Shown: positions 3,141 to 59,506 of the stretch, one piece after another | How positions within the stretch are numbered: position 1 is the stretch's first letter | How the letters are laid out: each line of letters begins with the position of its first letter | Assembly (NCBI GenBank): GCA_022447925.1 | Contig: JAKUTS010000001.1 | Location: 79,892 to 143,891 of the forward strand | Reading direction: 5' to 3' | Length of the DNA: 64,000 nt | Source of the DNA: SAR202 cluster bacterium | GTDB taxonomy: Bacteria; Chloroflexota; Dehalococcoidia; Lucifugimonadales; UBA2962 | Notes under the pieces: generated by a model | The model's input: the letters and a program-made list of their open reading frames with translations, nothing else | What the model was told of the DNA's origin: nothing | Database searches by the model: none | Program-made: the position numbers and the translations under genes

Positions 3141-3926
3141 ATGGCAAGTGAATCAGATTTAGAATTTACAAACTTTTCTACTGTTCATTGTTCTATTAAA
3201 AATCATGTTGGCCTTATTAGAATTCAAGGAAAAGATGGGTCAAATTTAATTAATCAACTAATGGTTGCTGAATTAAAAGAAGCAATTAACAGTTTCGATG
3301 ATAACCCTGCAGTTCGCGCGATTATCTTGTCTTCTAAGGGCAGTAACTTTTCAGATGGTTCAGCTCTACAAGGTTCATGTAAAAACGTTGATTTGAACTC
3401 TCATCGTATAGCGTTACACCTCGCTAATACTAGAAAAATCACTATAGCATCTCTTCGTGGTAACGTTTTGGATCAAGGACTCGAATTGGCTTTAGCTTGT
3501 GATATTCGGTTTGCAGACAGAGAATCAATATTTGGTTTAACTAATATTAAATCTGGTCTTATGCCATGGGACGGCGGTACGCAAAGGCTTACCCGTATAA
3601 TAGGCCCCTCAAGGGCTTTATACATGATGCTGACTGGAATAACAATTGATGGAGTTAAGGCGTTGGAATATGGCCTAGTCTCTGATATCACATCTGATCT
3701 TACTGATGAAGAATTATCTCTACAATTTGGTTTAATCATCTCGAATCATGGCCCTATAGCAGTGCAATATTTAAAAGAGGCGGTTAATTCGGGTTCTGAT
3801 CTTAATATCGAAGAAGGAATGCGACTCGAACTCGATTTAGCCACGTTGCTCCATTCAACTAATGATAGAGCTGAAGGGCTGCGTGCCTTTGCGGAAAAAA
3901 GGAAGCCGGAGTTTCAGGGTGACTGA
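3141..3926 (+). CDS. enoyl-CoA hydratase/isomerase (crotonase) family protein
   Basis: 261 aa with crotonase-fold pattern (VGLIRIQ..., AVRAIILSSKGSNFSDGSAL, GLELALACDIRFA, WDGGTQRLTRIIG, C-terminal DRAEGLRAFAEKRKPEF). Confidence 0.8.
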   Translation: MASESDLEFTNFSTVHCSIKNHVGLIRIQGKDGSNLINQLMVAELKEAINSFDDNPAVRAIILSSKGSNFSDGSALQGSCKNVDLNSHRIALHLANTRKITIASLRGNVLDQGLELALACDIRFADRESIFGLTNIKSGLMPWDGGTQRLTRIIGPSRALYMMLTGITIDGVKALEYGLVSDITSDLTDEELSLQFGLIISNHGPIAVQYLKEAVNSGSDLNIEEGMRLELDLATLLHSTNDRAEGLRAFAEKRKPEFQGD

Positions 3927-6203: not shown

Positions 6204-7463
6204 TCAGTCAATCTTGTCAAAACCGGTATATTCTCTTAAAACCTTTGGGATGATTATAGAACCATCGCTTTGTTGATAATTCTCAATTATTGCGATTAAT
6301 ATTCGCGGTATAGCTAACCCCGAGCCATTCAAGGTGTGAGGATATATTGGCTTTGATCCAGATTCTGGTCTATATCTTATTTTAGCCCGCCTCGACTGAA
6401 AATCATCACAATTGGAACAACTACTAACTTCTAACCAGTCTTCGCTACCGGGTGACCATACCTCTAGGTCAAAAGTTTTCACAGCAGAAAAACCCAGGTC
6501 TCCAGCACAAAGCTCAATAACCCTATATGTTAGTTCTAACTGACTTATAATTTCCTCGGCATTAGCTACCAGTTTTAAAAGTTCTTCATCAGAGTCGAGA
6601 GGGCTAACAAATTTATACATTTCAACTTTATCAAATTGATGTACTCTCTTAATGCCTCTTGTTTGACTTCCGGCAGCAGCTTTTTCCCGTCGAAAGCAAG
6701 GAGTATGAGAGACAAATTGAGAAGGTATTTGATCCGGATTCAATATTTCATCCCTAAACATGCTAGTTATGGGTACCTCAGCAGTTGGTATTAACCACAA
6801 ATCATCTTCTTGATCGTGATACATGGTTTCACTAAATTTTGGAAGATGCCCGCTTCCAGTGACGGTTTCACTATTCACTAAATAAGGCAAATATAATTCT
6901 TGGTATCCATGTTTCTCGGTGTGAGTGTTTAACATCCAAGATATTAGTGAGCGCTGTAGCTTTGCAGCCTTACTATTAAGCACATAAAATCTTGATCCAG
7001 ATATTTTTGCTGAAGCTGACAGGTCGATTAGTCCTAATCTTTTCGCTATTTCCCAATAGGGAGCAGGACTTTTGATAGATTTAATCGAACCTTGTACAGT
7101 GCGAACAATTTGATTTGACGACTCATCCTTACCATCTGGCACATTATCCCTAGGGATATTTGGCAACGTCAACATTATGGTATGAATCTCTTGTTGAGTA
7201 GACTTGTATTCAGCTTCCAGTTTTTTCACTTTTTGGCCTAGGGTTTTCATCTCAACGATTAATTCTTTACTTGGATTTTTTTTAAGGCCAATTTGTTGGT
7301 TGGATTTTTTTCTATCCGACCTTAAATTATCTAATTCTTTTTGAATCAATTTCCGTTTATTGTCTAATGAAACCAACTCATCTATACTGAAGGTGTCTCC
7401 CCGGCGTTGAATAGCATTGCGAACGTTTTCTGTGTCCGCCTGTATAAGTTCTATATTTAACAT
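6204..7463 (-). CDS. serS: seryl-tRNA synthetase
   Basis: 419 aa with an N-terminal coiled-coil arm. Class II motifs are present (LIPTAEVPIT, FRREAGS..., TLNGSGLAIPRILIAIIENYQ). Confidence 0.95.
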   Translation of the reverse strand: MLNIELIQADTENVRNAIQRRGDTFSIDELVSLDNKRKLIQKELDNLRSDRKKSNQQIGLKKNPSKELIVEMKTLGQKVKKLEAEYKSTQQEIHTIMLTLPNIPRDNVPDGKDESSNQIVRTVQGSIKSIKSPAPYWEIAKRLGLIDLSASAKISGSRFYVLNSKAAKLQRSLISWMLNTHTEKHGYQELYLPYLVNSETVTGSGHLPKFSETMYHDQEDDLWLIPTAEVPITSMFRDEILNPDQIPSQFVSHTPCFRREKAAAGSQTRGIKRVHQFDKVEMYKFVSPLDSDEELLKLVANAEEIISQLELTYRVIELCAGDLGFSAVKTFDLEVWSPGSEDWLEVSSCSNCDDFQSRRAKIRYRPESGSKPIYPHTLNGSGLAIPRILIAIIENYQQSDGSIIIPKVLREYTGFDKID

Positions 7464-7484: not shown

Positions 7485-8642
7485 CTAACCTAACTCTTCT
7501 TGCAGCCTTTTGAGTATTAATTGTTCATCCCCGTCATCTACAGTTTGTATTCGTATTATGACCGAATCTGGAACATTATCAGTTCTTAAATGGATTATAG
7601 GTTCGCCGTTTTCAAGTAAATCTTGTAATTCATCAGCTGATAAATTACAAGATTTCTTGTCGATTATAAGCCTTAAACCTTCGACCATTCCCTTGTCTGG
7701 AAAATCAGCTACGGTTATACCTGGAAGTTTTGCTATTTCATCGCGAATCTTGTTTAGTCTGGCTTCATAATTAGCTAAACGCGATTCATGGTCCATTTTA
7801 AGCCACTCTTGTAGTGCAACAAAAGTTCCCACAACCGTCTGGCGGTCCATTTTAATAGAGCGACCAAAAACCCGAGTATGTTCATATTCGAATCCAACGA
7901 AACTTAACCTATATGCAAGTCGCATTAGATGTTTATTAGCGCCTAACAGCAGGCCACTAGTATTTAAACCCTCAAAGTATTTTCCACCGTACCCGACCAA
8001 ATCGGCCCCATTTTGTGCATAGTGACTTAATCGATCTGTTGGATATACTTGACCAGCTGCATCTATCAATAGAGGTAATTTATTCCTATGAGCTAATTTG
8101 ACTAATTTGTTAAATGCAACGATATCAGTTCTTTGCTCTCTTTCACTTGGATCATCATATAGCCCTCCAGCTAGATAATGAATACCAGCTGTTTTTTCAT
8201 TTATTGCTTCTTCAATATCTTTTTCTGTAGTGTTTTGTTCATTGCCAACTTCAATTAGCTTGCCGCCGGGTACAGTCACAGCCTTGTCATAGCTTACCCG
8301 TAATTGTTTTTGTATTATGAATTCATTTGGCAGTCCGGTTACATCCGGTAATTGTTCAATATCATCTTCATTATTTCTTGTAATGCATGCCGCAGCTCCG
8401 AGTGAAAGTGCCGCGGAACATCCTGGGGTTACCATAGCGAAAGGGACATTTAACATTTCTGCGATTCGTTCGCCAGAAACCTCAACTAATTCACTCATTT
8501 TTACGTAGTCTAAAGAGGCATCCTCCATTGCTTCTTTAACAATCCTAGAAGGGTTGTTGCCACCAATTGCAGTTGGATGGCCATGGGCATTTATGACGGG
8601 TTTAATCCCTAAAGTTTTGTATATTTTGCTCTGTCCAGCCAT
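7485..8642 (-). CDS. SelA-fold / DgaE-like PLP-dependent enzyme (aminotransferase class V-fold); not a canonical SelA
   Basis: The N-terminus IYKTLGIKPVINAHGHPTAIGGN resembles the SelA/DgaE core start (xPVINxxG). A putative PLP-Lys context GYGGKYFEG is present. At 385 aa it is shorter than SelA and lacks SelA's N-terminal extension. Confidence 0.6.
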   Translation of the reverse strand: MAGQSKIYKTLGIKPVINAHGHPTAIGGNNPSRIVKEAMEDASLDYVKMSELVEVSGERIAEMLNVPFAMVTPGCSAALSLGAAACITRNNEDDIEQLPDVTGLPNEFIIQKQLRVSYDKAVTVPGGKLIEVGNEQNTTEKDIEEAINEKTAGIHYLAGGLYDDPSEREQRTDIVAFNKLVKLAHRNKLPLLIDAAGQVYPTDRLSHYAQNGADLVGYGGKYFEGLNTSGLLLGANKHLMRLAYRLSFVGFEYEHTRVFGRSIKMDRQTVVGTFVALQEWLKMDHESRLANYEARLNKIRDEIAKLPGITVADFPDKGMVEGLRLIIDKKSCNLSADELQDLLENGEPIIHLRTDNVPDSVIIRIQTVDDGDEQLILKRLQEELG

Positions 8643-23641: not shown

Positions 23642-24172
23642 TTGTCATCGGATGTAACGCCTAAAATAGACCCTACGCCAGATTCAGAAAAACAAGATCT
23701 CAAGGATCGTATAAATAAAGCTGTAACCACTCAGAAGAGACCAACTGTTACAGTACTTTCATCTTTACTATCTATAGAAGATGAAATGGGTTATATTCCT
23801 GCAGAAGCAATATCTATAGTTGCTGAATATAACAATTCGACTATCAATGAAGTTTGGGGAGTAGCCTCCTTTTATCCAAATTTTCGATTTGAACCGCCTT
23901 CTGAAAATACTGTAGAGGTATGTTGGGGGCCATCTTGTCATTTAGTGGGGGCAACAGATGTTATTAAGTCTGTGTTAGATGAATTGGAGCTTGATGGAGA
24001 AGGAGACACCCCAGATAAAATGGCAACCTTCAAGTTCAATACATGTTTAGGTGCTTGTCCTCAAGCTCCGGTAATGAGTATAAATCACCGAATGTACGGG
24101 AAAGTGTCAGCTAAACAAGCTAAAACTTACATTTCAGCGTTGAGAGAAGATGTAAAAGGCGCACACAAATGA
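23642..24172 (+). CDS. NuoE/FdsG-like thioredoxin-fold [2Fe-2S] subunit
   Basis: Cys pattern CWGPSCH...CLGACPQAPV is typical of NuoE/24-kDa subunits. AGGAGA lies upstream of the TTG start. Confidence 0.8.
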   Translation: MSSDVTPKIDPTPDSEKQDLKDRINKAVTTQKRPTVTVLSSLLSIEDEMGYIPAEAISIVAEYNNSTINEVWGVASFYPNFRFEPPSENTVEVCWGPSCHLVGATDVIKSVLDELELDGEGDTPDKMATFKFNTCLGACPQAPVMSINHRMYGKVSAKQAKTYISALREDVKGAHK

Positions 24173-25953
24173 GCTCCTATGAAGCACTAAAAACATTAGC
24201 CGATTCTAGGTGGGCAGAACTTACAGAGGGAAGCGTGCCTTGGATCAAAATAGGCATGTCTATGTGTTGTGGTCAAGCTTCTGGAGCATATGAAACACTT
24301 GATGCGATTAAAGAGGCATTAAATTCAGATGGGATTGAGGCAAATATCAGCGAAGTTGGATGTTTAGGGATTTGTTATGCATCTCCGGTGGTAGATATTT
24401 TATTGCCCAATAAACACCGTGCTGTATACGGTAATGTAACTCCAGATTTAGTGAAGGATCTAATTGATAGGTGCTTGGTTAAAGAAAGAATTCCTAAGAA
24501 AAACTTACTAGGCGTCGTAGATGTAGGTGGTACTAAGCTGAATGGCTTGCCCGAATTTAATGAACTGCCTCAGATTAAACTTCAAAACCGTATTGCCCTT
24601 CGAAATGCCGGGCATATTGACCCGAAAGATATATATCAGTATATAGCTCGAGGCGGCTACTTAGGATTGAATAGATCTTTATCCGATCTTAAGCCCGAAG
24701 ATGTAATCGAAGAGGTTAAATCTTCAGGGCTAAGAGGGCGCGGAGGTGCAGCATTCCCAACAGGTGTTAAGTGGAGCTTTATGACCAGAGGAGAGAAACC
24801 GAAATACATTCTCTGTAATTGTGAAGAGGGTGACCCCGGAGCCTTTAATGACAAATCTATTCTGGAAAGTGATCCGTATACTACCATTGAAGGCATGACG
24901 ATAGCTGCTTACGCTACTGGTTCCACAAATGGAATAATTTTTATAAGGCATGGTCATGATGGACCAATTAATACTACAGAAGACGCAATAAAACAGGCAT
25001 ATGAAGCTGGCTTATTGGGCAAGAACATACTCGGATCTGACTTCAGTTTTGATTTAGAAGTGTCATTAACAGGAGAATCGTATGTTGCTGGTGAGGAAAC
25101 AGCTCTTATGGAAGCAGTTGAAGGTAAAAGATCAATGCCGCGAGCAAGACCGCCTTTTCCGGCAGCATTTGGTGTTTGGGGACGTCCAAGCACTATTAAT
25201 AATGTAAAGTCTCTTTCTTATGCTCCATCTATCCTTGAACATGGATCCGAGTGGTTTTCATCTATTGGAGTAAACAAAAGCACAGGTACTGCGATTATAT
25301 GCCTGAGCGGCAACATAAAATATCCGGGTTTATATGAAGTTCCAATGGGCTTAACTATCGGTGATGTAATCGATAGTATTGGTGGGGGAGTGCCCAATGG
25401 TCGTAAATTAAAAATGTTACAAACTGGAGGCCCTCTTGGGGGTGTCTTAAGTTCGGATTCTCTTGGAATAACTTTAGATTTTGATGAGATGCGAGATGCT
25501 GGAGCGATACTTGGTTCAGGTGGGATAATAGTTGCAGATGATCGAACATGTGCAGTCGATCTTACTAGGATTCTTGTTGCTTTTTGTCAGTTTGAATCAT
25601 GTGGAAAATGTTTTCCTTGTCGCCTGGGTACCACTAATCTGTTAGAAATTGTTGAGAGAATGGCATCTAACAAAGCCAAATTAGGTGACGTCGAATTGAT
25701 GAAGCAGATCGGACAAACAATGCAAGCAGGTTCGTTGTGTGGGCATGGGCAATTAGGATTCAATCCAATTGATTCAGCAATGAAGCACTTTCAAGAAGAT
25801 TGGAGTGCTTGTGTTGATGAAGGGAAGTGTTTAACAGGGTCATGTAATAAACCGTATTTTACGCCGATAAATACTAGGCCATTTGCAGATGCTCCTATCA
25901 AAAATACGGTTCCAATTCATATTGCAAACCAAGTTGGAGAAAAACATGAGTGA
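24169..25953 (+). CDS. NuoF/FdsB-like NAD(H)-binding FMN + [4Fe-4S] subunit with extra N-terminal [2Fe-2S]-like domain
   Basis: Motifs GLRGRGGAAFPTGVKW (FMN/NADH site), CNCEEGDPGAF and ESCGKCFPCRLG...SLCGHG (N3-type cluster). The N-terminal domain has CCG...CLGICY. Confidence 0.85.
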   Translation: MSSYEALKTLADSRWAELTEGSVPWIKIGMSMCCGQASGAYETLDAIKEALNSDGIEANISEVGCLGICYASPVVDILLPNKHRAVYGNVTPDLVKDLIDRCLVKERIPKKNLLGVVDVGGTKLNGLPEFNELPQIKLQNRIALRNAGHIDPKDIYQYIARGGYLGLNRSLSDLKPEDVIEEVKSSGLRGRGGAAFPTGVKWSFMTRGEKPKYILCNCEEGDPGAFNDKSILESDPYTTIEGMTIAAYATGSTNGIIFIRHGHDGPINTTEDAIKQAYEAGLLGKNILGSDFSFDLEVSLTGESYVAGEETALMEAVEGKRSMPRARPPFPAAFGVWGRPSTINNVKSLSYAPSILEHGSEWFSSIGVNKSTGTAIICLSGNIKYPGLYEVPMGLTIGDVIDSIGGGVPNGRKLKMLQTGGPLGGVLSSDSLGITLDFDEMRDAGAILGSGGIIVADDRTCAVDLTRILVAFCQFESCGKCFPCRLGTTNLLEIVERMASNKAKLGDVELMKQIGQTMQAGSLCGHGQLGFNPIDSAMKHFQEDWSACVDEGKCLTGSCNKPYFTPINTRPFADAPIKNTVPIHIANQVGEKHE

Positions 25954-28699
25954 AGATCTAGTCATCAATATTGATGGTAAAGAGATTAAAGCTAAGCCTG
26001 GACAAATGATTCTTCAGGCAGCAATGGACGCTGGAGTTTACATTCCATATCTATGTTACTACCCTGGCACTAAACCTTTCGGTGCGTGCCGTATGTGTGT
26101 TGTGTCAGTCGATGGTGTCCGAGGAACTCCGGCATCTTGTACAACACCAGTTAGTCCAGACATGATTGTAAAAACTGATACAGCTGAGATTGTTGAGCTA
26201 CGGAGAGGCATCATGGACTTGCTTCTGTCTGAGCACCCACATGGATGTTTAACATGCCATAGGATCGAGTTATGTGGACCAACAGATGTATGTTTGCGTC
26301 ATGTATCAGTAAATGATCGTTGTGTTACATGCCCAAAGAACGAGAGATGTGAATTAAAAGACACTGTTCGTTGGTTAGAGATGGACATGGAAACTCCGCT
26401 TACATACCAGAATCGGCAGATACCTTTGAAGACAGCTGATCCATTCTGGGATATGGACATGAACTTATGTATTGTTTGTGGGCGTTGTGTCAGAGTATGC
26501 GATGAGATTAGAGGTGATAGCGCTTTAACATTTTTAAATCGAGCAGGAAAGACCGTAATCGGTACCTCTCAAGGCACCTCATTGCTCGAGTCAGGTTGTG
26601 AGTTTTGTGGAGCTTGTATTGATGCTTGTCCAACTGGAGCATTAGTCGAACGGGATTACAAATGGGATAAAGCAATAAAGACTGTGGAGTCAGTCTGCCC
26701 TCATTGTCCCGTTGGATGTAGCATGAAGCTCGAAATAAATAAAAGAGACAAACTTATTCGCGCAATTCCAGACAGTCAATCGTCAGTTAATAGAGGTCAA
26801 TCTTGCTACAAAGGAAAATTTGGGAACAATTTTGTTAACAGTAAAAAAAGAATAAAAGCTCCGATGATTAGAAGTGAGGGGGAATTAAAGGAAGTAGGTT
26901 GGAATGAAGCAATTTCAACGCTTACTGAAAAACTTGATCCCTATAGAAATAATAACGAATATTATTTACTACAATCTCCGAGATCAACTAATGAAGAAGC
27001 TTTCATATCTCAAAAATTTGCACGTAGTGTTATGGGTACAAATAATGTAAATGTATCTTCGAATACTAGGCCTGAATTGGTTGAATATTTGGGTCAAATG
27101 CTTGGAAATTATGCCGGAACAAATTCCATTTGGGATCTCGAAAAGTCGCAGGCATTTCTGGTTGTTTCAGCCAATATGACAGAACAGCATAATGTAGCTG
27201 CATTACCAATAAAACAGGCAGTTAAAAATGGATCTGATCTTATTGTTATTGATCAACGAGAAACTGAATTGACCAAAATCGCGTCTATTTGGCTAAGGCC
27301 AAAGCCAAACACCGAGACCGTTCTCATTGGTTCAATTCTAAAAGTTATTATTGACGAAACTTTAGATGATCATGATTTCATAAATGATTACACTGACGAT
27401 TCGGAAAAGATGAGGAAATCTGTCGTTTCATTTGACATTGTTAAAGCAGAGAATATAACTGGAATACCAGTAGATGAAATAAGAAAGACAGCGCGGATCA
27501 TTGCACATGCCAAGCCCCTTTCCGTGCTCTATGCACTTGAAACACTTAATGAGGCAGTTAGACCTGATTGTGTAAAGGCTCTGATAAATTTATCGATGGC
27601 TACAGGAAATATAGGAATTGTAGGCGGAGGCTTATATCCATTGCTTAATGGAGCCAACGAACAGGGCGCTAAGGACTCAGGATGTATGCCTGATAAGTTG
27701 CCTGGGTATATAGATTTAGATAATGATCTTCGAATATCAGAATATGAAAAAATGGCTGGCTATTCGGTTCCAAAAACTCCAGGATGGTCTATAGATGAAA
27801 TGGCCGGTGCAGTAAAGTCTGGTCGATTAAAAGCTTTACATGTCATCGGTGATAGCCCTTCACTAGTTAACGGTGAATTAGCTGAATTGGTCAATTCTAT
27901 AGATAAGCTAGAACTATTGATTGTGCATGCTTCTTTAGAAAATGAACTTACAGCAAATGCCGACATTGTTTTACCTGCAGAAACTTTTGCTGAAGCTGAG
28001 GGGACCTACACCAATTTAGAGAGAAGAGTGCAGATATTAAATCCGGCTATATCGGCGAAAGGCTATCAAACGCCGAGTTGGAGTGTTTTGAATCAAGTAG
28101 CAAATGCATTGAGTGTAAGTGGTTTTGAATATCAGACATCGATGCAAATATTTGACGAGATTCGCCGTCAGTCAGATGTATACAAGGGTATTTCATACGA
28201 AAAATTAAAAAGCACCTCAGGTGTTCAGTGGCCATGTTCACATAAAGAATCGGATGGGTCATCAACCCTATATTCCAAACAAAAACCTGATATTAAAAGA
28301 AGCAGATTTGTAAGTGTAGAATTACAAATTCCTACTGATTCTGATAATACAAATTACGGTTTTATTTTAGCTGAAGGAAGGGTCCTTCTGCAGTCGGAAC
28401 GTACATTTGAACTAGTAAAAAATAACAAAAGAAATGAGATATCTCGGGAAGAAATCTTAGAGATTCATCCCAAAGATGCAGAAGGTTTAAATCTTAAAGA
28501 AGGAGACCTTGTTGAGCTTGAGAGGGATGATATAAAAGTAAAATTGAAGGTTCATATTAACGGGATACAGCAGGGCTTGGTTGCTACTACTGAACTATTT
28601 GGATCATACGCTGGAAGGTTAGATTTAACTTCTGATCCCGACCCTGTATTAAATTCAAAGAACCTATCTTTGATTCCGGTTAAATTAAAAACCGTATAA
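25946..28699 (+). CDS. NuoG / formate-dehydrogenase-alpha-like Fe-S + molybdopterin-domain subunit (catalytic Cys/Sec position not conserved)
   Basis: N-terminal [2Fe-2S] (CYYPG...CRMCVV). His-ligated cluster HPHGCLTCHRIELC. Two ferredoxin-type CxxCxxCxxxCP motifs. Mo-domain cluster CPHCPVGCS...CYKG. Preferred start is ATG 25946 (GGAGA 5 nt upstream, ATGAGTGA overlap with nuoF-like stop) rather than the track's 25883. Confidence 0.85.
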   Translation: MSEDLVINIDGKEIKAKPGQMILQAAMDAGVYIPYLCYYPGTKPFGACRMCVVSVDGVRGTPASCTTPVSPDMIVKTDTAEIVELRRGIMDLLLSEHPHGCLTCHRIELCGPTDVCLRHVSVNDRCVTCPKNERCELKDTVRWLEMDMETPLTYQNRQIPLKTADPFWDMDMNLCIVCGRCVRVCDEIRGDSALTFLNRAGKTVIGTSQGTSLLESGCEFCGACIDACPTGALVERDYKWDKAIKTVESVCPHCPVGCSMKLEINKRDKLIRAIPDSQSSVNRGQSCYKGKFGNNFVNSKKRIKAPMIRSEGELKEVGWNEAISTLTEKLDPYRNNNEYYLLQSPRSTNEEAFISQKFARSVMGTNNVNVSSNTRPELVEYLGQMLGNYAGTNSIWDLEKSQAFLVVSANMTEQHNVAALPIKQAVKNGSDLIVIDQRETELTKIASIWLRPKPNTETVLIGSILKVIIDETLDDHDFINDYTDDSEKMRKSVVSFDIVKAENITGIPVDEIRKTARIIAHAKPLSVLYALETLNEAVRPDCVKALINLSMATGNIGIVGGGLYPLLNGANEQGAKDSGCMPDKLPGYIDLDNDLRISEYEKMAGYSVPKTPGWSIDEMAGAVKSGRLKALHVIGDSPSLVNGELAELVNSIDKLELLIVHASLENELTANADIVLPAETFAEAEGTYTNLERRVQILNPAISAKGYQTPSWSVLNQVANALSVSGFEYQTSMQIFDEIRRQSDVYKGISYEKLKSTSGVQWPCSHKESDGSSTLYSKQKPDIKRSRFVSVELQIPTDSDNTNYGFILAEGRVLLQSERTFELVKNNKRNEISREEILEIHPKDAEGLNLKEGDLVELERDDIKVKLKVHINGIQQGLVATTELFGSYAGRLDLTSDPDPVLNSKNLSLIPVKLKTV

Positions 28700-45333: not shown

Positions 45334-46257
45334 TTGTTAATTAGAATTGAGTCGGCCTTTAATCTGGAATCAACATTAGATAGTGGTCAGGCATTTCGAT
45401 GGAAAAATCGAGGTGACTATTTTGAAGGCGTGGTAGACCAATCTATTATTCTCCTAAAACAAGTTGTCGACGGACTGGAATTTGAATCTTTTCCTCAAGC
45501 TGAAAAAGAGATTGAGTCTAAGCTGAAGTATTATCTGTCTTTGCATGATGATTTGGAAATTATATTGAAATCAATTGCTGTAGATCGAAACATCCAATCG
45601 TATATTGATCAATACAAAGGTATGAGAATCTTGAAACAAGATCCTTGGGAATGTCTAATTTCATTCATATGTTCCTCTAATTCTAATGTGTTGAGGGTCA
45701 AGCAAAATGTTGAAGATATGTCTGCAGCTTACGGAGAAAAGATTGAAGCTTTTGGAAGCATAAGACACACTTTTCCCTCCCCGCAACAATTGGAAAATGC
45801 CAGTATCCCTATTCTTAGACAGCTTAAGCTCGGTTATAGAGCAGAGTATATCTATGAAGCTGTAAAATTGGTCTCACAACATGTAATCAACCCATGGGCA
45901 TTATTAGAAGAACCTTATGAAGAAGCCCTAATGACCCTAACTAAGATACCTGGTATTGGGGATAAAGTCGCGAATTGCATAATGTTGTTTTCTATGAGTA
46001 AGGATGACGCTTTTCCTGTCGATGTTTGGATTGATCGAATTATTAAAGAACTTTATCCTGAAGAACTAGATGATTATATTCAAAGAAAATATTCAAATCA
46101 GTTGGCAAATAAAAAGAGAACTAAAAATAGGCTCAAAACCCCTTCGGTGAATAGAATGATTATAAAAGATTGGGCTAGGGAATATTTTGGGGATTATGCT
46201 GGATGGGCCAATCATTACATGTTTCACGAGAGACGTAAAAGATTACTGCGCAGTTAA
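45334..46257 (+). CDS. ogg: 8-oxoguanine DNA glycosylase/AP lyase (OGG1-type, HhH-GPD)
   Basis: N-terminal LDSGQAFRW. HhH-GPD IPGIGDKVANCIMLF with the catalytic-type Lys, plus downstream FPVDVW Asp. TTG start. The 3' end overlaps the convergent SDR by 15 nt. Confidence 0.8.
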   Translation: MLIRIESAFNLESTLDSGQAFRWKNRGDYFEGVVDQSIILLKQVVDGLEFESFPQAEKEIESKLKYYLSLHDDLEIILKSIAVDRNIQSYIDQYKGMRILKQDPWECLISFICSSNSNVLRVKQNVEDMSAAYGEKIEAFGSIRHTFPSPQQLENASIPILRQLKLGYRAEYIYEAVKLVSQHVINPWALLEEPYEEALMTLTKIPGIGDKVANCIMLFSMSKDDAFPVDVWIDRIIKELYPEELDDYIQRKYSNQLANKKRTKNRLKTPSVNRMIIKDWAREYFGDYAGWANHYMFHERRKRLLRS

Positions 46258-47004
46258 AGCTCCATCTATAGATAGACACGAACCGGTGACATATGATGAT
46301 GCATCAGACCATAAAAATGTAACTAATCCAGCAATACTTTCTGGAGTTCCTAATTGTTTGATTGGGTGAAAATCTCGTGCTTTTATCCACGCTTCAGAAT
46401 TTTTACCATATGTTTGATTGAACATAGGAGTTTCCACACCGCCAGGACAAACGGCATTTATGCGGATTCCTTTATCGGCGTAGTCTAAAGCAGCGCTTTT
46501 TGTCAGTCCGTTCAAGCCATGTTTATTAGCAGTGTAAGTAGTAAAACCTTTTGTGCCAATTAACCCATTTGCAGAGGACATATTGACAATGCTTCCGCCA
46601 CCTTTAGATAACATATGTTGAATTTCATGCTTCATGCATAAAAATGGCGCAGTTAAATTTACTGACATCATATGATTCCAAATATCAGAATCGATTTCGT
46701 GTATAGGTAATTGTGGTCCGCCTGTGGCTGAGTTATTACAAGCCAAATCAACTTCGCCGTATTTTTCTATCGTTTTTTCAAACAAACTGTCAATTTGTTT
46801 CGGATCTGACATGTCTGCCTTTATGAAAAACGCCTCTCCACCCTTACTTAAAATGTAATCAACTGTTTCTTTGCCAGTTTTTTCGTCTCGCGCTCCTATT
46901 ACAATTTTTGCTCCTTCACTGGCCGCTCTAATTGAAATTGCTTTTCCAATTCCAGAGTTGCCACCAGTTATCAACGCTACTTTATTTTTTAATAATTCTG
47001 TCAC
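46243..47004 (-). CDS. SDR-family oxidoreductase
   Basis: TGGNSGIGKA (TGxxxGIG), NNSA, S...YxxxK (YTANKHGL). 253 aa. Confidence 0.85.
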   Translation of the reverse strand: MTELLKNKVALITGGNSGIGKAISIRAASEGAKIVIGARDEKTGKETVDYILSKGGEAFFIKADMSDPKQIDSLFEKTIEKYGEVDLACNNSATGGPQLPIHEIDSDIWNHMMSVNLTAPFLCMKHEIQHMLSKGGGSIVNMSSANGLIGTKGFTTYTANKHGLNGLTKSAALDYADKGIRINAVCPGGVETPMFNQTYGKNSEAWIKARDFHPIKQLGTPESIAGLVTFLWSDASSYVTGSCLSIDGALTAQ

Positions 47005-47058: not shown

Positions 47059-47823
47059 TCATCGAGCGAGCATTCCTGCATCTACTGGCATAGTAGCCCC
47101 GTGTACGAAAGAAGCATCCTTTGTACATAGCCATACAACCATCTCCGCAACTTCTTCCGCTGTGCCATATCTTTTCATCGGCACGGTTGACTTCCATTCT
47201 TCATATAATTCTGGATGATCATCCCAAAATGGTTGGTTGATTTGTGTATCAATGATACCTGGGGCTACAGAATTAATTCGAATTCCTTTGGCACCATATT
47301 CAAGTGCAGCGCTCTGTGTAAAGCCAACAACTGCGTGTTTACTTGCCACATATATAGATAAACCAGCACCTCCAACCAGACCTGCTTGTGAAGCTGTATT
47401 TACGATACAGCCGCCTTGTTGCTCCAACATTATTGGAATTTCATATTTCATGCATAACCAGACACCTTTAGAGTTTATGTTCATAACTTTGTCATAATCT
47501 TCTTCGGTGCATTGATCTATTGGTTTATCAAACAGTCCAATGCCAGCGTTATTAAATGCAAAATCTAATTGATTATGTGACTTTATGATTTGCTCCATTA
47601 GTGCTTTTACTTCTGATCCATTTGACACATCGGTACGGATAAAATGAGCTAAGCCTCCATTTTCTATAATCTTAGATGCTGTTTTATTTCCGGATATTTC
47701 ATCCAGATCAGAACAAATTACCGTTGCACCTTTTTCAGCAAACTTCATGGCACTTGCTCTGCCGATACCGTTTGCTGCGCCGGTTACTAAAGCAACTTTT
47801 CCAGAAAATTGTTTATCTGCCAC
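47059..47823 (-). CDS. SDR-family oxidoreductase
   Basis: TGAANGIGRA, NNAG, YVASKHAV catalytic tetrad pattern. GTG start with GAAAGG upstream. 254 aa. Confidence 0.85.
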   Translation of the reverse strand: MADKQFSGKVALVTGAANGIGRASAMKFAEKGATVICSDLDEISGNKTASKIIENGGLAHFIRTDVSNGSEVKALMEQIIKSHNQLDFAFNNAGIGLFDKPIDQCTEEDYDKVMNINSKGVWLCMKYEIPIMLEQQGGCIVNTASQAGLVGGAGLSIYVASKHAVVGFTQSAALEYGAKGIRINSVAPGIIDTQINQPFWDDHPELYEEWKSTVPMKRYGTAEEVAEMVVWLCTKDASFVHGATMPVDAGMLAR

Positions 47824-47863
47824 TTTTTACCTTTCCGTCCATCTTTATTTGCTAATGGGCTAT

Positions 47864-48136
47864 TTATTCTTGCTCAGTAAATAACTCTGACCTTATCTGG
47901 TCAACTAATATTGACTCTTCGGGAAATTCCCCTGTTTCTAGCTTTGAATACATTAGTTTATCGCCGACAGAAACTTCGAAAGCTCCCCCGTCAGCTGGAA
48001 TCAACGAAATGCCACTTATATCCCATGAACATAAGTTCATTAGTTGCTTTGACAGGCTAACTGCCTGTGGAACATAATCTCAGGGAACACAGTATTTAAT
48101 ACTAATTAGTGGTCTCGATTTTACATCGCCTAGCAT
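47864..48136 (-). CDS. SelW/Rdx-family thioredoxin-fold selenoprotein candidate; in-frame TGA (48080-48082) read as Sec in a CxxU motif
   Basis: Hand translation of the minus strand gives MLGDVKSRPLISIKYCVPUDYVPQAVSLSKQLMNLCSWDISGISLIPADGGAFEVSVGDKLMYSKLETGEFPEESILVDQIRSELFTEQE. A strong RBS is present (TAAGGAGAAATTTATG). Rdx hallmarks are visible: I-x-YC-x-x-C/U near the N-terminus, LIPxxGGxFEV, and FPE. The ORF is missing from the track because of the TGA. Confidence 0.75.
48052..48068 (-). promoter_or_regulatory. candidate bacterial SECIS hairpin
   Basis: On the mRNA the sequence is UGA, then 11 nt, then ACAGGC-AGUUA-GCCUGU (6-bp stem). The apical loop contains GU and starts 17 nt after the UGA, which is within the range described for bSECIS elements. 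The fold was judged by eye only. Confidence 0.45.
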
Positions 48137-48211
48137 AAATTTCTCCTTACGCTTGTGACTCATATGTTTAATTAAATTCCAATTTTTAAGTTTAAAATCA
48201 CACCGGTATAC

Positions 48212-49198
48212 TTACAATAGAGCTTTAACAAGTTTAGTGAATCTTTCCATCTTAAATAGAGTTTCATCTATATCTTTTCCTTTGTAGTCCAGTGTTAAAT
48301 AACTGATTCCAATTTCTCCGAGGTTATATATGTCTTCTGCAACTTGTGATGGTTCCCCGGTCAACAATCTCCTATTTCCATTTTCATCAAATGTTGTATC
48401 TGTATCCGAGTACCACATTTCAGCACTTAGAGCTACATCTATCGTATTAATATCTCGATTAGCATCATCTAGCTTGAAGTTCAATTTGCTAATGCCCTCT
48501 TTTAAACGATCGATCGTGTCTAGTGGATATTGTGGATTATTTCCAAATGGGTACCATACATCTCCATAATTTGCCGCTCGCCTAATTGCAGCCGGGCTCT
48601 CCCCGCCAATCCATATTGGAGGATAAGGTTTTTGAATAGGTTTGGGGGCAAAGTAAATGTCTGAAAAAGATACATAATTCCCTTTAAACCTAGGGTTTGT
48701 ACTGCCCCATAGTTCCTTAAAAGCATTGATATATTCGTTAGTTACGGCACCGCGTTTTTTAAAGGTATCTAGGCCTAGTGCCTCAAATTCCTCTTCCATC
48801 CATCCAGCACCACAACCCACAATTAACCGACCGTTAGAAAGGACGTCGATTGTGGCCAATATCTTCGCTGTCAGAACTGGTTGACGATATGGCAATATAC
48901 ACACTGAACTTAAAAGGTTGATTTTGTTTGTATGGGCGGCTAAATAAGACAGTGTAGTAAGCTGCTCGAAATGTAATCCTTGATCATCTTCCCCCTGACT
49001 TTCTTTGCTTGACCATTCTCCTAGGAAAGCTCCGGAGTCACTGTATGGGTAGCTTGATTGAATTGATCTTGGAACAACTAGGTGGTCACCTATATGTAAA
49101 TAATCAAAACCTATTTGTTCTCCATGTTTAGCTACCCGAGCTAAATTGTCGGCACCGGCAAAAACACCAGATGTAGGAACTTCGAAACCGAAATTCAC
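48212..49198 (-). CDS. LLM-class F420-dependent oxidoreductase (Rv2161c/TIGR03619-like)
   Basis: Motifs MNFGFEVP..., GFDYLHIGDHLVVP, SSYPYSDSG, GRLIVGCGAGWMEEEF and PPIWIGGESPAAIRRAA. GTG start overlaps the upstream stop (GTGA). Confidence 0.85.
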   Translation of the reverse strand: MNFGFEVPTSGVFAGADNLARVAKHGEQIGFDYLHIGDHLVVPRSIQSSYPYSDSGAFLGEWSSKESQGEDDQGLHFEQLTTLSYLAAHTNKINLLSSVCILPYRQPVLTAKILATIDVLSNGRLIVGCGAGWMEEEFEALGLDTFKKRGAVTNEYINAFKELWGSTNPRFKGNYVSFSDIYFAPKPIQKPYPPIWIGGESPAAIRRAANYGDVWYPFGNNPQYPLDTIDRLKEGISKLNFKLDDANRDINTIDVALSAEMWYSDTDTTFDENGNRRLLTGEPSQVAEDIYNLGEIGISYLTLDYKGKDIDETLFKMERFTKLVKALL

Positions 49199-50193
49199 TT
49201 TTTCACCTGGGAAATCACTTCTGTGTAAAATGCGTCCATGCGTTCTTTAGATTCTCCCGTTGATGATGAAAGTAGATCAAACCCAAGGACATCAATCAGA
49301 AGATAATCGACACCGACTTCTTCGAGTTGACTAATGTCAGATGCTATTTGATTAAAGTTGCCGGTCAAAATAGTTCTATCACCACTTTCAGACGTATGAG
49401 CTTTTCTTTCATCGTACCAGCTGGCTGCATATGCTAGAGATATTCTGTCAGGATCTCTGCCAGCTTCATCGGCATTTTGCTTAACTATTTCAAAGTAACT
49501 ATAAAGCTTTTCAGGTTTTTGTAGCCTGTATTTTGGGTTATTACCTATTGGATACCAAACATCAGCATACCTGCCAGCTCGCCTCAATGCAGCAGGACTT
49601 TCTCCGCCAGTCCATATTGGTGGGTGTGGTTTTTGTGCTGGTTTTGGTTCGAAAGCTATATTGCTAAAAGAGACATGGTGTCCTTTAAAGTTCGGATTAT
49701 TAGATGTCCACATTTCCTTAAATGCGGAAATATATTCATCCGTAACTCGACCTCTTGAATCATAGGTATTTAATCCCAGGGCTATGAACTCTTCTTCCAT
49801 CCAACCTGCTCCAAGGCCTACTAGTAATCGACCTTTGGACAGCACGTCAACGGTTGCTAATACTTTACCTGCATGTATAGCTGATCTATATGGAGTTACC
49901 ATAACACTGGTTAACAGCTGTGCTTTAGATGTTGCTCCAGCAATGAATGCGAGGGTTGTTAATTGTTCTAAACAGTCGCCAATAAATTCGCCCCCCGGAA
50001 ATTCCCCGGAGTCTGTATAAGGGTAACTTGATGATATGTACCTAGGCACCACTATATGATCTGACACAGCCATAAAATCAAATCCTAAACATTCACCTTG
50101 CGTGGCAAGGCTGGTAAGCCCTTCTCTAGTTGAGAGGGGGCCTCTGTTAGGGAGTACAAAACCAAATTTCATGCTATTAGATCGATCCAACAA
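49195..50193 (-). CDS. LLM-class F420-dependent oxidoreductase, tandem paralogue of the downstream gene
   Basis: Same motif set (MKFGFVLP, GFDFMAVSDHIVVP, SSYPYTDSG, GRLLVGLGAGWMEEEF, PPIWTGGESPAALRRAG). The track start is TTG 50193. ATG 50172 (MKFGF...) matches the paralogue's N-terminus better. Confidence 0.85.
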   Translation of the reverse strand: MLDRSNSMKFGFVLPNRGPLSTREGLTSLATQGECLGFDFMAVSDHIVVPRYISSSYPYTDSGEFPGGEFIGDCLEQLTTLAFIAGATSKAQLLTSVMVTPYRSAIHAGKVLATVDVLSKGRLLVGLGAGWMEEEFIALGLNTYDSRGRVTDEYISAFKEMWTSNNPNFKGHHVSFSNIAFEPKPAQKPHPPIWTGGESPAALRRAGRYADVWYPIGNNPKYRLQKPEKLYSYFEIVKQNADEAGRDPDRISLAYAASWYDERKAHTSESGDRTILTGNFNQIASDISQLEEVGVDYLLIDVLGFDLLSSSTGESKERMDAFYTEVISQVKK

Positions 50194-57118: not shown

Positions 57119-57387
57119 GGCTGCGCACCCACTGTCGATCTTTTCGATGTCACTTAAATTAATAGACCGACTCAAGTCAGGCGATCCCACGGCACCCGAA
57201 ATGACTTACTTGCCGCTGCTTCCTTCCGGACCTGACGGGGTTCGGTAAGCTTTCGTCGCGTAGGACCCAACTCTCAACATCGAACCAAAAAGACATTGGT
57301 GAATCAAATTGACCTTCATAGGGAATTCAGTCTCGCTGTAGCGGATTGCGAGTATAGGGCACCGCTAGCTCCCCACCTAGCACAGCC
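57119..57387 (-). ncRNA. ffs: signal recognition particle RNA, long (Alu-domain-containing) bacterial form
   Basis: The minus strand contains GUCAGGUCCGGAAGGAAGCAGC, identical to the conserved domain IV 5' strand of 4.5S/SRP RNA. The partner strand GGGUGCCG is present. The predicted ends pair (5' GGCUGUGC / 3' GCGCAGCC). Length is about 269 nt. Ends are uncertain by about 10 nt. Confidence 0.9.
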
Positions 57388-59424: not shown

Positions 59425-59506
59425 TGGGGAAGGAGGGACTCGAACCCACACGCCTTACGGCACATGATCCTAAATCATGCTCGTCTACCAATTCCGACAC
59501 TTCCCC
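59425..59506 (-). tRNA. tRNA-Leu (anticodon UAG), CCA not encoded
   Basis: Minus strand reads GGGGAAGTGTCGGAATTGGTAGACGAGCATGATTTAGGATCATGTGCCGTAAGGCGTGTGGGTTCGAGTCCCTCCTTCCCCA. It has a 7-bp acceptor stem, anticodon arm CATGA-TTTAGGA-TCATG, a long variable arm and a GGTTCGAGTCC T-loop. A TATAAT box lies at 59524-59529 upstream. Confidence 0.95.

Follow-up and report, generated by a model that had tools for sequence, protein, structure and literature searches.

The 64-kb window, which is the whole stretch of SAR202 DNA analyzed here, very probably carries a functional gene for a 90-residue SelW-like (Rdx) protein of thioredoxin fold with the active-site motif Cys16-x-x-Sec19. The in-frame TGA at codon 19 of this gene almost certainly encodes selenocysteine, a residue whose identity we infer. 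SAR202 belongs to the class Dehalococcoidia of the phylum Chloroflexota. In the standard bacterial model, the UGA at codon 19 would not be read as a stop during translation. Instead, the stem-loop located 11 nt downstream would function as a bacterial SECIS and would recruit SelB together with GTP and Sec-tRNA(Sec). Selenocysteine would then be inserted, and 71 more codons would be translated up to the TAA. The features on which this reading rests are as follows.

47864..48136, minus strand: complete SelW-like (Rdx family) selenoprotein gene, 90 residues plus TAA, matched by Pfam and TIGRFAM
48148..48143, minus strand: ribosome-binding site AAGGAG, 6 nt before the ATG, read from the sequence
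48080..48091, minus strand: redox motif Cys16-Val-Pro-Sec19 (TGT GTT CCC TGA), aligned with CTQC of solved Cys-form Rdx proteins
48068..48052, minus strand: SECIS-like stem-loop ACAGGC-AGUUA-GCCUGU, 6 bp, 11 nt after the UGA, -8.4 kcal/mol as a local fold
47864..48040, minus strand: 58-residue ATG-started fragment, the ORF-caller output that replaces the full gene
49195..50193 and 48212..49198, minus strand: two luciferase-like monooxygenase (LLM) genes directly upstream, PF00296
47059..47823 and 46243..47004, minus strand: two short-chain dehydrogenase (SDR) genes directly downstream, PF13561/PF00106

The preliminary description of this DNA placed a 91-codon minus-strand frame between an SDR gene and an LLM gene, with a ribosome-binding site ahead of it and one TGA inside it, and stated that ordinary ORF callers miss the gene. 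Each of these points is reproduced. The frame extends from the ATG at 48136..48134 to the TAA at 47866..47864 (91 codons counting the stop) and takes up the 388-nt space that separates the SDR start at 47823 from the LLM stop at 48212. The AAGGAG element is found where it had been proposed, and the sole internal stop is the TGA of codon 19 at 48082..48080, which is confirmed base for base. With this codon read as selenocysteine, the product is MLGDVKSRPLISIKYCVPUDYVPQAV...IRSELFTEQE. The mechanical ORF list gives only the 58-residue piece, whose ATG at 48040 has no ribosome-binding site before it, and public gene calls contain comparable short fragments of 58-62 residues (P0013-P0023). For a relative with 86% identity, NCBI/JGI already name the 62-residue fragment 'putative selenoprotein, Rdx family' or 'selenoprotein W-related protein'. 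A longer version of the gene starting at the in-frame ATG 48163, 27 nt upstream of 48136, was rejected; this ATG is not conserved in the relatives, and thus 48136 is the likely start. For annotation, the locus currently appears as an intergenic gap or as a meaningless 58-residue fragment, and calling the full gene requires a transl_except at codon 19.

The read-through product is a member of the Rdx (SelW/SelT/SelH) family. Profile searches, performed with the TGA read as Cys, match Pfam Rdx PF10262 with an E-value of 3.3e-18 and 66.1 bits (cutoff 22.6) over positions 2-73 of the 74-position profile. The 58-residue fragment spans only profile positions 31-73. NCBIfam TIGR02174 CXXU_selWTH is also passed (57.3 bits versus a cutoff of 34.2), so that both profiles, each above its cutoff, bear out the family assignment of the preliminary description. 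The Campylobacter-type subfamily was rejected, with the equivalog NF041051 SelTWH_Campy falling below its cutoff (65 versus 88). A profile of the family itself matches the solved bacterial Rdx structures 2fa8, 2obk, 2oka, 2p0g, 3dex and 2ojl with E-values of 1e-14 to 2e-18, of which 2fa8, 2obk, 2oka and 2p0g are at 1e-15 to 2e-18, and also matches MIEN1 (E 2e-13) and mouse SelW (E 1e-6). In the two alignments inspected, those with 2fa8 and 2obk, the TGA column coincides with the second Cys of CTQC, as expected from the earlier proposal that the TGA falls where the family has Cys or Sec.

The predicted structure is consistent with this assignment. An AlphaFold model was built on the relative P0001, which is 97% identical and has W at the Sec column, and it is a low-confidence model (pLDDT 63). 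Its predicted elements follow the order b1 (11-15), a1 (19-35), b2, b3, b4 and a2, which is the thioredoxin-like Rdx order, and the model superimposes on 2obk, 3dex, 2p0g and 2fa8 with TM scores of 0.65-0.76 and a probability of 1.00. C16-V-P-U19 is located directly after the predicted strand 11-15, at the start of the predicted helix 19-35.

How well is the TGA maintained in other genomes? The nearest genome loci come from the SAR202 MAGs OSU_TB35 (98%) and NAT137 (97%) and from the Dehalococcoidia MAG UBA1152 (86%). TGA occupies the CxxU column in all nine genome loci, which represent at least four phyla and comprise SAR202, Rhodopirellula, another Planctomycetota MAG, Alteribacillus persepolensis DSM 21632, Verrucomicrobiales and an unclassified MAG. 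Public gene calls led to 15 SAR202-type loci in metagenomes, and the codon is TGA in 15/15 of these, as it is in 80/80 additional loci from marine and soil metagenomes. Across more than 100 independently assembled loci, neither TGC nor TGT occurs at the Sec codon. Four public protein sequences (P0001-P0003 and P0008) display W at the Sec column, but the DNA beneath them has TGA; the W stems from gene calling under code 4, in which TGA stands for Trp. The homologue alignment shows TGA in every fetched locus and Cys in the solved Cys-form homologues.

Selection acts on both sides of this codon. In a simplified Nei-Gojobori count over 12 distinct SAR202-type sequences, codons 1-18, which precede the TGA, have a pN/pS of 0.05-0.27 among SAR202 lineages, and codons 20-85, which follow it, have one of 0.00-0.26. 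The TGA is retained across all 12 sequences despite synonymous divergence up to saturation, and the adjacent Val17 codon varies among GTT, GTA, GTG and GTC. Equal purifying selection on the two sides of the TGA indicates that both halves are translated in one frame, which speaks against a stop at the TGA and against a pseudogene or sequencing error. The preliminary description had pointed to protein-like sequence for 71 codons past the TGA and had named homologues that stop at the TGA, or are not conserved past it, as grounds for abandoning its reading. The purifying selection on codons 20-85 substantiates the former, and the homologues are conserved beyond the TGA.

Several individual loci deviate from the common pattern. 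In the Verrucomicrobiales MAG CPC300, the motif is encoded by TGA GGA ATG TGA (L008:5015-5026 and L009:333-344), which gives UxxU in place of CxxU. Two contigs of this MAG carry it in identical form, perhaps through duplication in the assembly, and no further UxxU case occurs among the 80 metagenome loci. In the GOS survey, UxxU is reported only for a Prx-like family (PMC2398784). The locus beneath P0008 (L020:154-411, on a contig of 528 nt) is identical to the SAR202 type in its first 43 residues and only distantly related in the remainder, and it is probably a chimeric assembly.

The mRNA downstream of the UGA contains the 6-bp hairpin that had been described from the sequence, 11 nt after the UGA and with G and U in the apical loop AGUUA. 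Folding of this region gives a z-score of -2.3 against dinucleotide shuffles for a 66-nt segment, which is only modestly unusual by itself, and 2.65% of 2000 synonymous recodings drawn with the codon usage of the window fold equally well. The position of the hairpin is nonetheless conserved in the family, and the stem has undergone compensatory changes. In two relatives with 69% protein identity (L018/L021), the stem is CCAAGC...GCUUGG, in which two pairs are changed on both sides (A-U to C-G and G-C to A-U) and three of the four changes are synonymous.

Among 77 distinct sequences, perfect 6-bp hairpins cluster at two registers, numbered in nt after the U of the UGA (alignment columns 18-37 correspond to nt 15-34). 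The window-type register, with a stem from nt 15 and a 5-nt loop, is adopted by 21/77 sequences, and the alternative register, with a stem from nt 20 and a 3-nt loop, by 37/77; at other independent positions, a perfect 6-bp hairpin is found in at most four sequences. All sequences without a perfect hairpin in either register reach 5/6 pairs in one of the two. In a 72-row alignment, 81% of the cells pair in the window register and 85% in the alternative register, compared with 17-44% in controls slid by 1-3 columns, where the range for the window register is 17-43%, and the observed covariation score was reached by 0/500 shuffles. The loop always has a G, which is followed by U except in 16 sequences of the alternative register. 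Across all loci, the two registers are mutually exclusive and lie 3-5 nt apart, with the loop at nt 21-25 (window) or nt 26-28, and a few sequences are able to form either hairpin. Two loci (L019/L031) are SAR202-like in the C-terminal half but diverge in the N-terminal half and use the other register, and they may be recombinant or chimeric assemblies. At a permissive threshold, Rfam gave chance hits only for the hairpin region, and no family covers the hairpin. A second hairpin approximately 42 nt past the UGA (AUGAAC-UUAU-GUUCAU) was rejected, as it is not conserved in the related locus L003.

In the SECIS of E. coli fdhF, the stem-loop starts approximately 11 nt past the UGA, and its apical loop has G and U near nt 22-24. 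The hairpin geometry of the present family resembles both this element and the bSECISearch model. The window stem starts at a similar distance and shares the loop G and U, but at 6 bp it is shorter than that of fdhF and no bulged U is evident, and the family uses two registers 3-5 nt apart. The encoded protein differs in the same segment: in the Sec forms, the Sec is followed by a common (N/D/G)-Y-x-P-x-A-V-S-L, whereas the Cys forms 2fa8 and 2obk have W-L-L-R-A. The hairpin lies in the mRNA for this stretch, and the RNA structure probably shapes the protein sequence just after the Sec.

TGA is otherwise an ordinary stop codon in this DNA. The 52 ORFs of the window, which has a G+C content of 38%, end in TAA (29), TGA (14) or TAG (9), and the frequency of TGA indicates that it serves as an ordinary stop in this organism, in line with the earlier argument against a TGA=Trp code. 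The TGA codons at 3924, 24170 and 25951 end Pfam-supported genes. Genes terminated by TGA include serS, lexA, tatC, ksgA and those for an enoyl-CoA hydratase, a NuoE-like protein and a NuoF-like protein. For serS, the enoyl-CoA hydratase, NuoE-like and NuoF-like, the Pfam/NCBIfam matches reach the profile end. A six-frame scan of the window revealed no other credible in-frame TGA.

These observations bear on four other readings of the codon. If the UGA simply terminates translation, the locus yields only an 18-residue peptide, or a separate protein truncated at its N-terminus and started at ATG 48040, and would represent a relic left after loss of the Sec machinery. This reading could draw on the 58-62-residue fragments delivered by ordinary gene callers and on the lack of sel genes and tRNA-Sec in the window and 10 kb past each end. 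It is, however, quite unlikely given that purifying selection acts on codons 1-18 as strongly as on the rest, that the TGA is kept throughout the 12 distinct SAR202-type sequences and that the hairpin has compensatory changes. Moreover, the fragment matches the second half of the Rdx profile only, being without strand b1 and the redox motif, and its ATG lacks a ribosome-binding site. We regard as very improbable a read-through in which near-cognate or suppressor decoding places an ordinary residue (Trp, Cys or Gly) at the UGA. The translation of the codon as W in some public gene calls (code 4) accords with such decoding, but the codon sits on the redox-active second Cys of the CxxC motif in Cys-form relatives, a conserved stem-loop follows at SECIS distance, orthologues are physically linked to selD and selA, and TGA is a normal stop in the window.

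The remaining two readings have a negligible probability. A lone in-frame stop in one sequence looks like a nonsense mutation or a base error, and the locus could accordingly be taken for a pseudogene or for a Cys-form Rdx gene in which TGC or TGT was misread. All of the more than 100 independently assembled loci, however, have TGA at the same codon and none has TGY, so that the sequencing error that the preliminary description had itself considered is excluded. A genetic code with TGA as a sense codon (code 4 or 25) would account for this single codon and nothing more, and it conflicts with the 14 ORFs that end in TGA and with the absence of any other credible in-frame TGA in the six frames.

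Where does the machinery for selenocysteine insertion reside? Neither selA, selB, selD nor tRNA-Sec is present in the 64-kb window or in the 10 kb past each end, and no other selenoprotein gene was found in these approximately 84 kb, including the intergenic gaps and the regions upstream of ORFs. Two candidates for the machinery were rejected. A 614-residue GTPase considered as SelB is LepA. A 385-residue ORF at 7485-8642 (minus strand) considered as SelA reaches only 25 bits with TIGR00474 and instead belongs to the DgaE family (TIGR01437, 181 bits against a cutoff of 385; PDB 8t7j and 7lc0 at E-values of approximately 1e-32 to 1e-33). This relative of DgaE-family ammonia-lyases, a PLP enzyme, lies directly upstream of serS (6204-7463, minus strand), and the pairing is kept in two related contigs (L108 and L109). 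The only tRNA in the window is a tRNA-Leu (59425-59506, minus strand), located upstream of the lepA-linked SRP RNA region, and a bacterial large SRP RNA (57121-57385, minus strand, 174.5 bits) lies downstream of lepA; both are ordinary housekeeping genes. The release factor encoded in the window is RF1, which has no bearing on UGA. A cluster at 23642-28699 (plus strand) encodes NuoE-like, NuoF-like and FdhA-like molybdopterin oxidoreductase subunits and resembles an NAD-linked formate dehydrogenase. Its FdhA-like large subunit has no in-frame TGA and is thus not a Sec form, although the organism appears to use selenocysteine.

Outside SAR202, orthologues of the gene are found next to the selenium machinery. 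In Alteribacillus persepolensis (L005:3829-6738), the orthologue is located between a divergent Sec-form selD (…AG-U-GCK…) and selA (TIGR00474, 554 bits). Of the non-SAR202 metagenome loci (from L038-L100), 60 have a 3' flank of 300 nt or more, and in 22 of these selD or selA directly follows the orthologue on the same strand, with selD in 18 loci (nearly all of them Sec forms, ..SCAG-U-AGK..) and selA in 4. This linkage hints at a role of the SelW-like protein in selenium metabolism, and no description of it was found in the literature searched. Two sponge bins with SAR202 as the nearest 16S relative carry COG3276 SelB (PMC5649159, Table S4). The COG1921 'SelA' counts in the sponge bins of the same study were set aside as weak evidence, since this COG probably also counts DgaE-like paralogues of the kind found at 7485-8642. 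Together with the selenoprotein-rich Dehalococcoidia MAGs mentioned below, the linked orthologues and the SelB-bearing bins support Sec decoding in this genome indirectly.

In the window, the gene has a different setting. The SelW-like gene is separated by 75 nt from the LLM gene before it and by 40 nt from the SDR gene after it, and all five genes share one strand. The order in the window and in SAR202 relatives is TatC, LexA / LLM, LLM, SelW-like, (Zn-ADH in some), SDR, SDR / OGG. The additional Zn-dependent alcohol dehydrogenase gene stands between the SelW-like gene and the first SDR gene in SAR202 relatives at 86-90% identity (L010-L017 and L023) and is missing from the window (47824-47863) and from the loci L001/L002. 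A promoter and terminator scan gave nothing above chance. The SelW-like gene is probably co-transcribed with the two LLM and two SDR genes.

The fold family, the motif and the recoding mechanism are already well known, and the protein belongs to the commonest selenoprotein type of marine bacteria; as a selenoprotein, the find is ordinary. Bacterial SelW-like CxxU selenoproteins were described by comparative genomics (Zhang and Gladyshev; PMC1794560), and they constitute the most abundant selenoprotein family of the GOS data, with 427 Sec versus 56 Cys forms (PMC2398784). The window protein resembles these catalogued members (PMC1794560, PMC2398784) in fold family, in CxxU after strand b1, in a length of approximately 75-90 residues, in an in-frame UGA with a stem-loop after it in the coding sequence and in the marine setting. 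Nothing essential differs; what distinguishes the window copy is its SAR202 host and its place in an LLM/SDR oxidoreductase cluster rather than beside selD/selA.

The Cys-form Rdx proteins (Atu0228 2fa8, 2obk, 2oka, 2p0g, 3dex and 2ojl) give the same full-length sequence and fold match with the motif at the same place, but they contain CxxC (CTQC) and the W-L-L-R-A segment instead of CxxU and its Sec-form sequel. Animal SelW, SelT, SelH, SelV and MIEN1 share the Rdx fold with CxxU or CxxC, and 2npb and 2ljk were matched, but they are distant in sequence, as the E-value of 1e-6 given above for SelW indicates. Eukaryotic Sec insertion also employs a 3'-UTR SECIS and SBP2, whereas the window gene has its hairpin in the coding region.

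Judging from its motif and fold, the product is likely to be a small selenol/thiol oxidoreductase. A more specific role than that of a generic antioxidant is conceivable, though we hold it to be doubtful: the Sec-only SelW-like branch might act as a selenium- or selenide-handling partner of selenophosphate synthetase and, in SAR202, might have been transferred to an operon of flavin monooxygenase and dehydrogenase genes, where its selenol would make it a dedicated redox partner for the oxidation of recalcitrant organic matter. A partnership with selenophosphate synthetase would explain the frequent place of the gene directly before Sec-form selD or beside selA.

The new aspect is the SelW-like copy in SAR202, a clade for which a literature search that joined SAR202 with selenoprotein or selenocysteine found nothing specific. 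In the dark ocean, SAR202 ranks among the most abundant bacterial groups. Marine Dehalococcoidia MAGs are already counted with the selenoprotein-richest bacteria, and two Dehalococcoidia MAGs belong to the top ten for selenoprotein genes in BSepDB (PMC13326102). The gene described in the present study implies that this SAR202 lineage would decode UGA as selenocysteine and so would need selenium.
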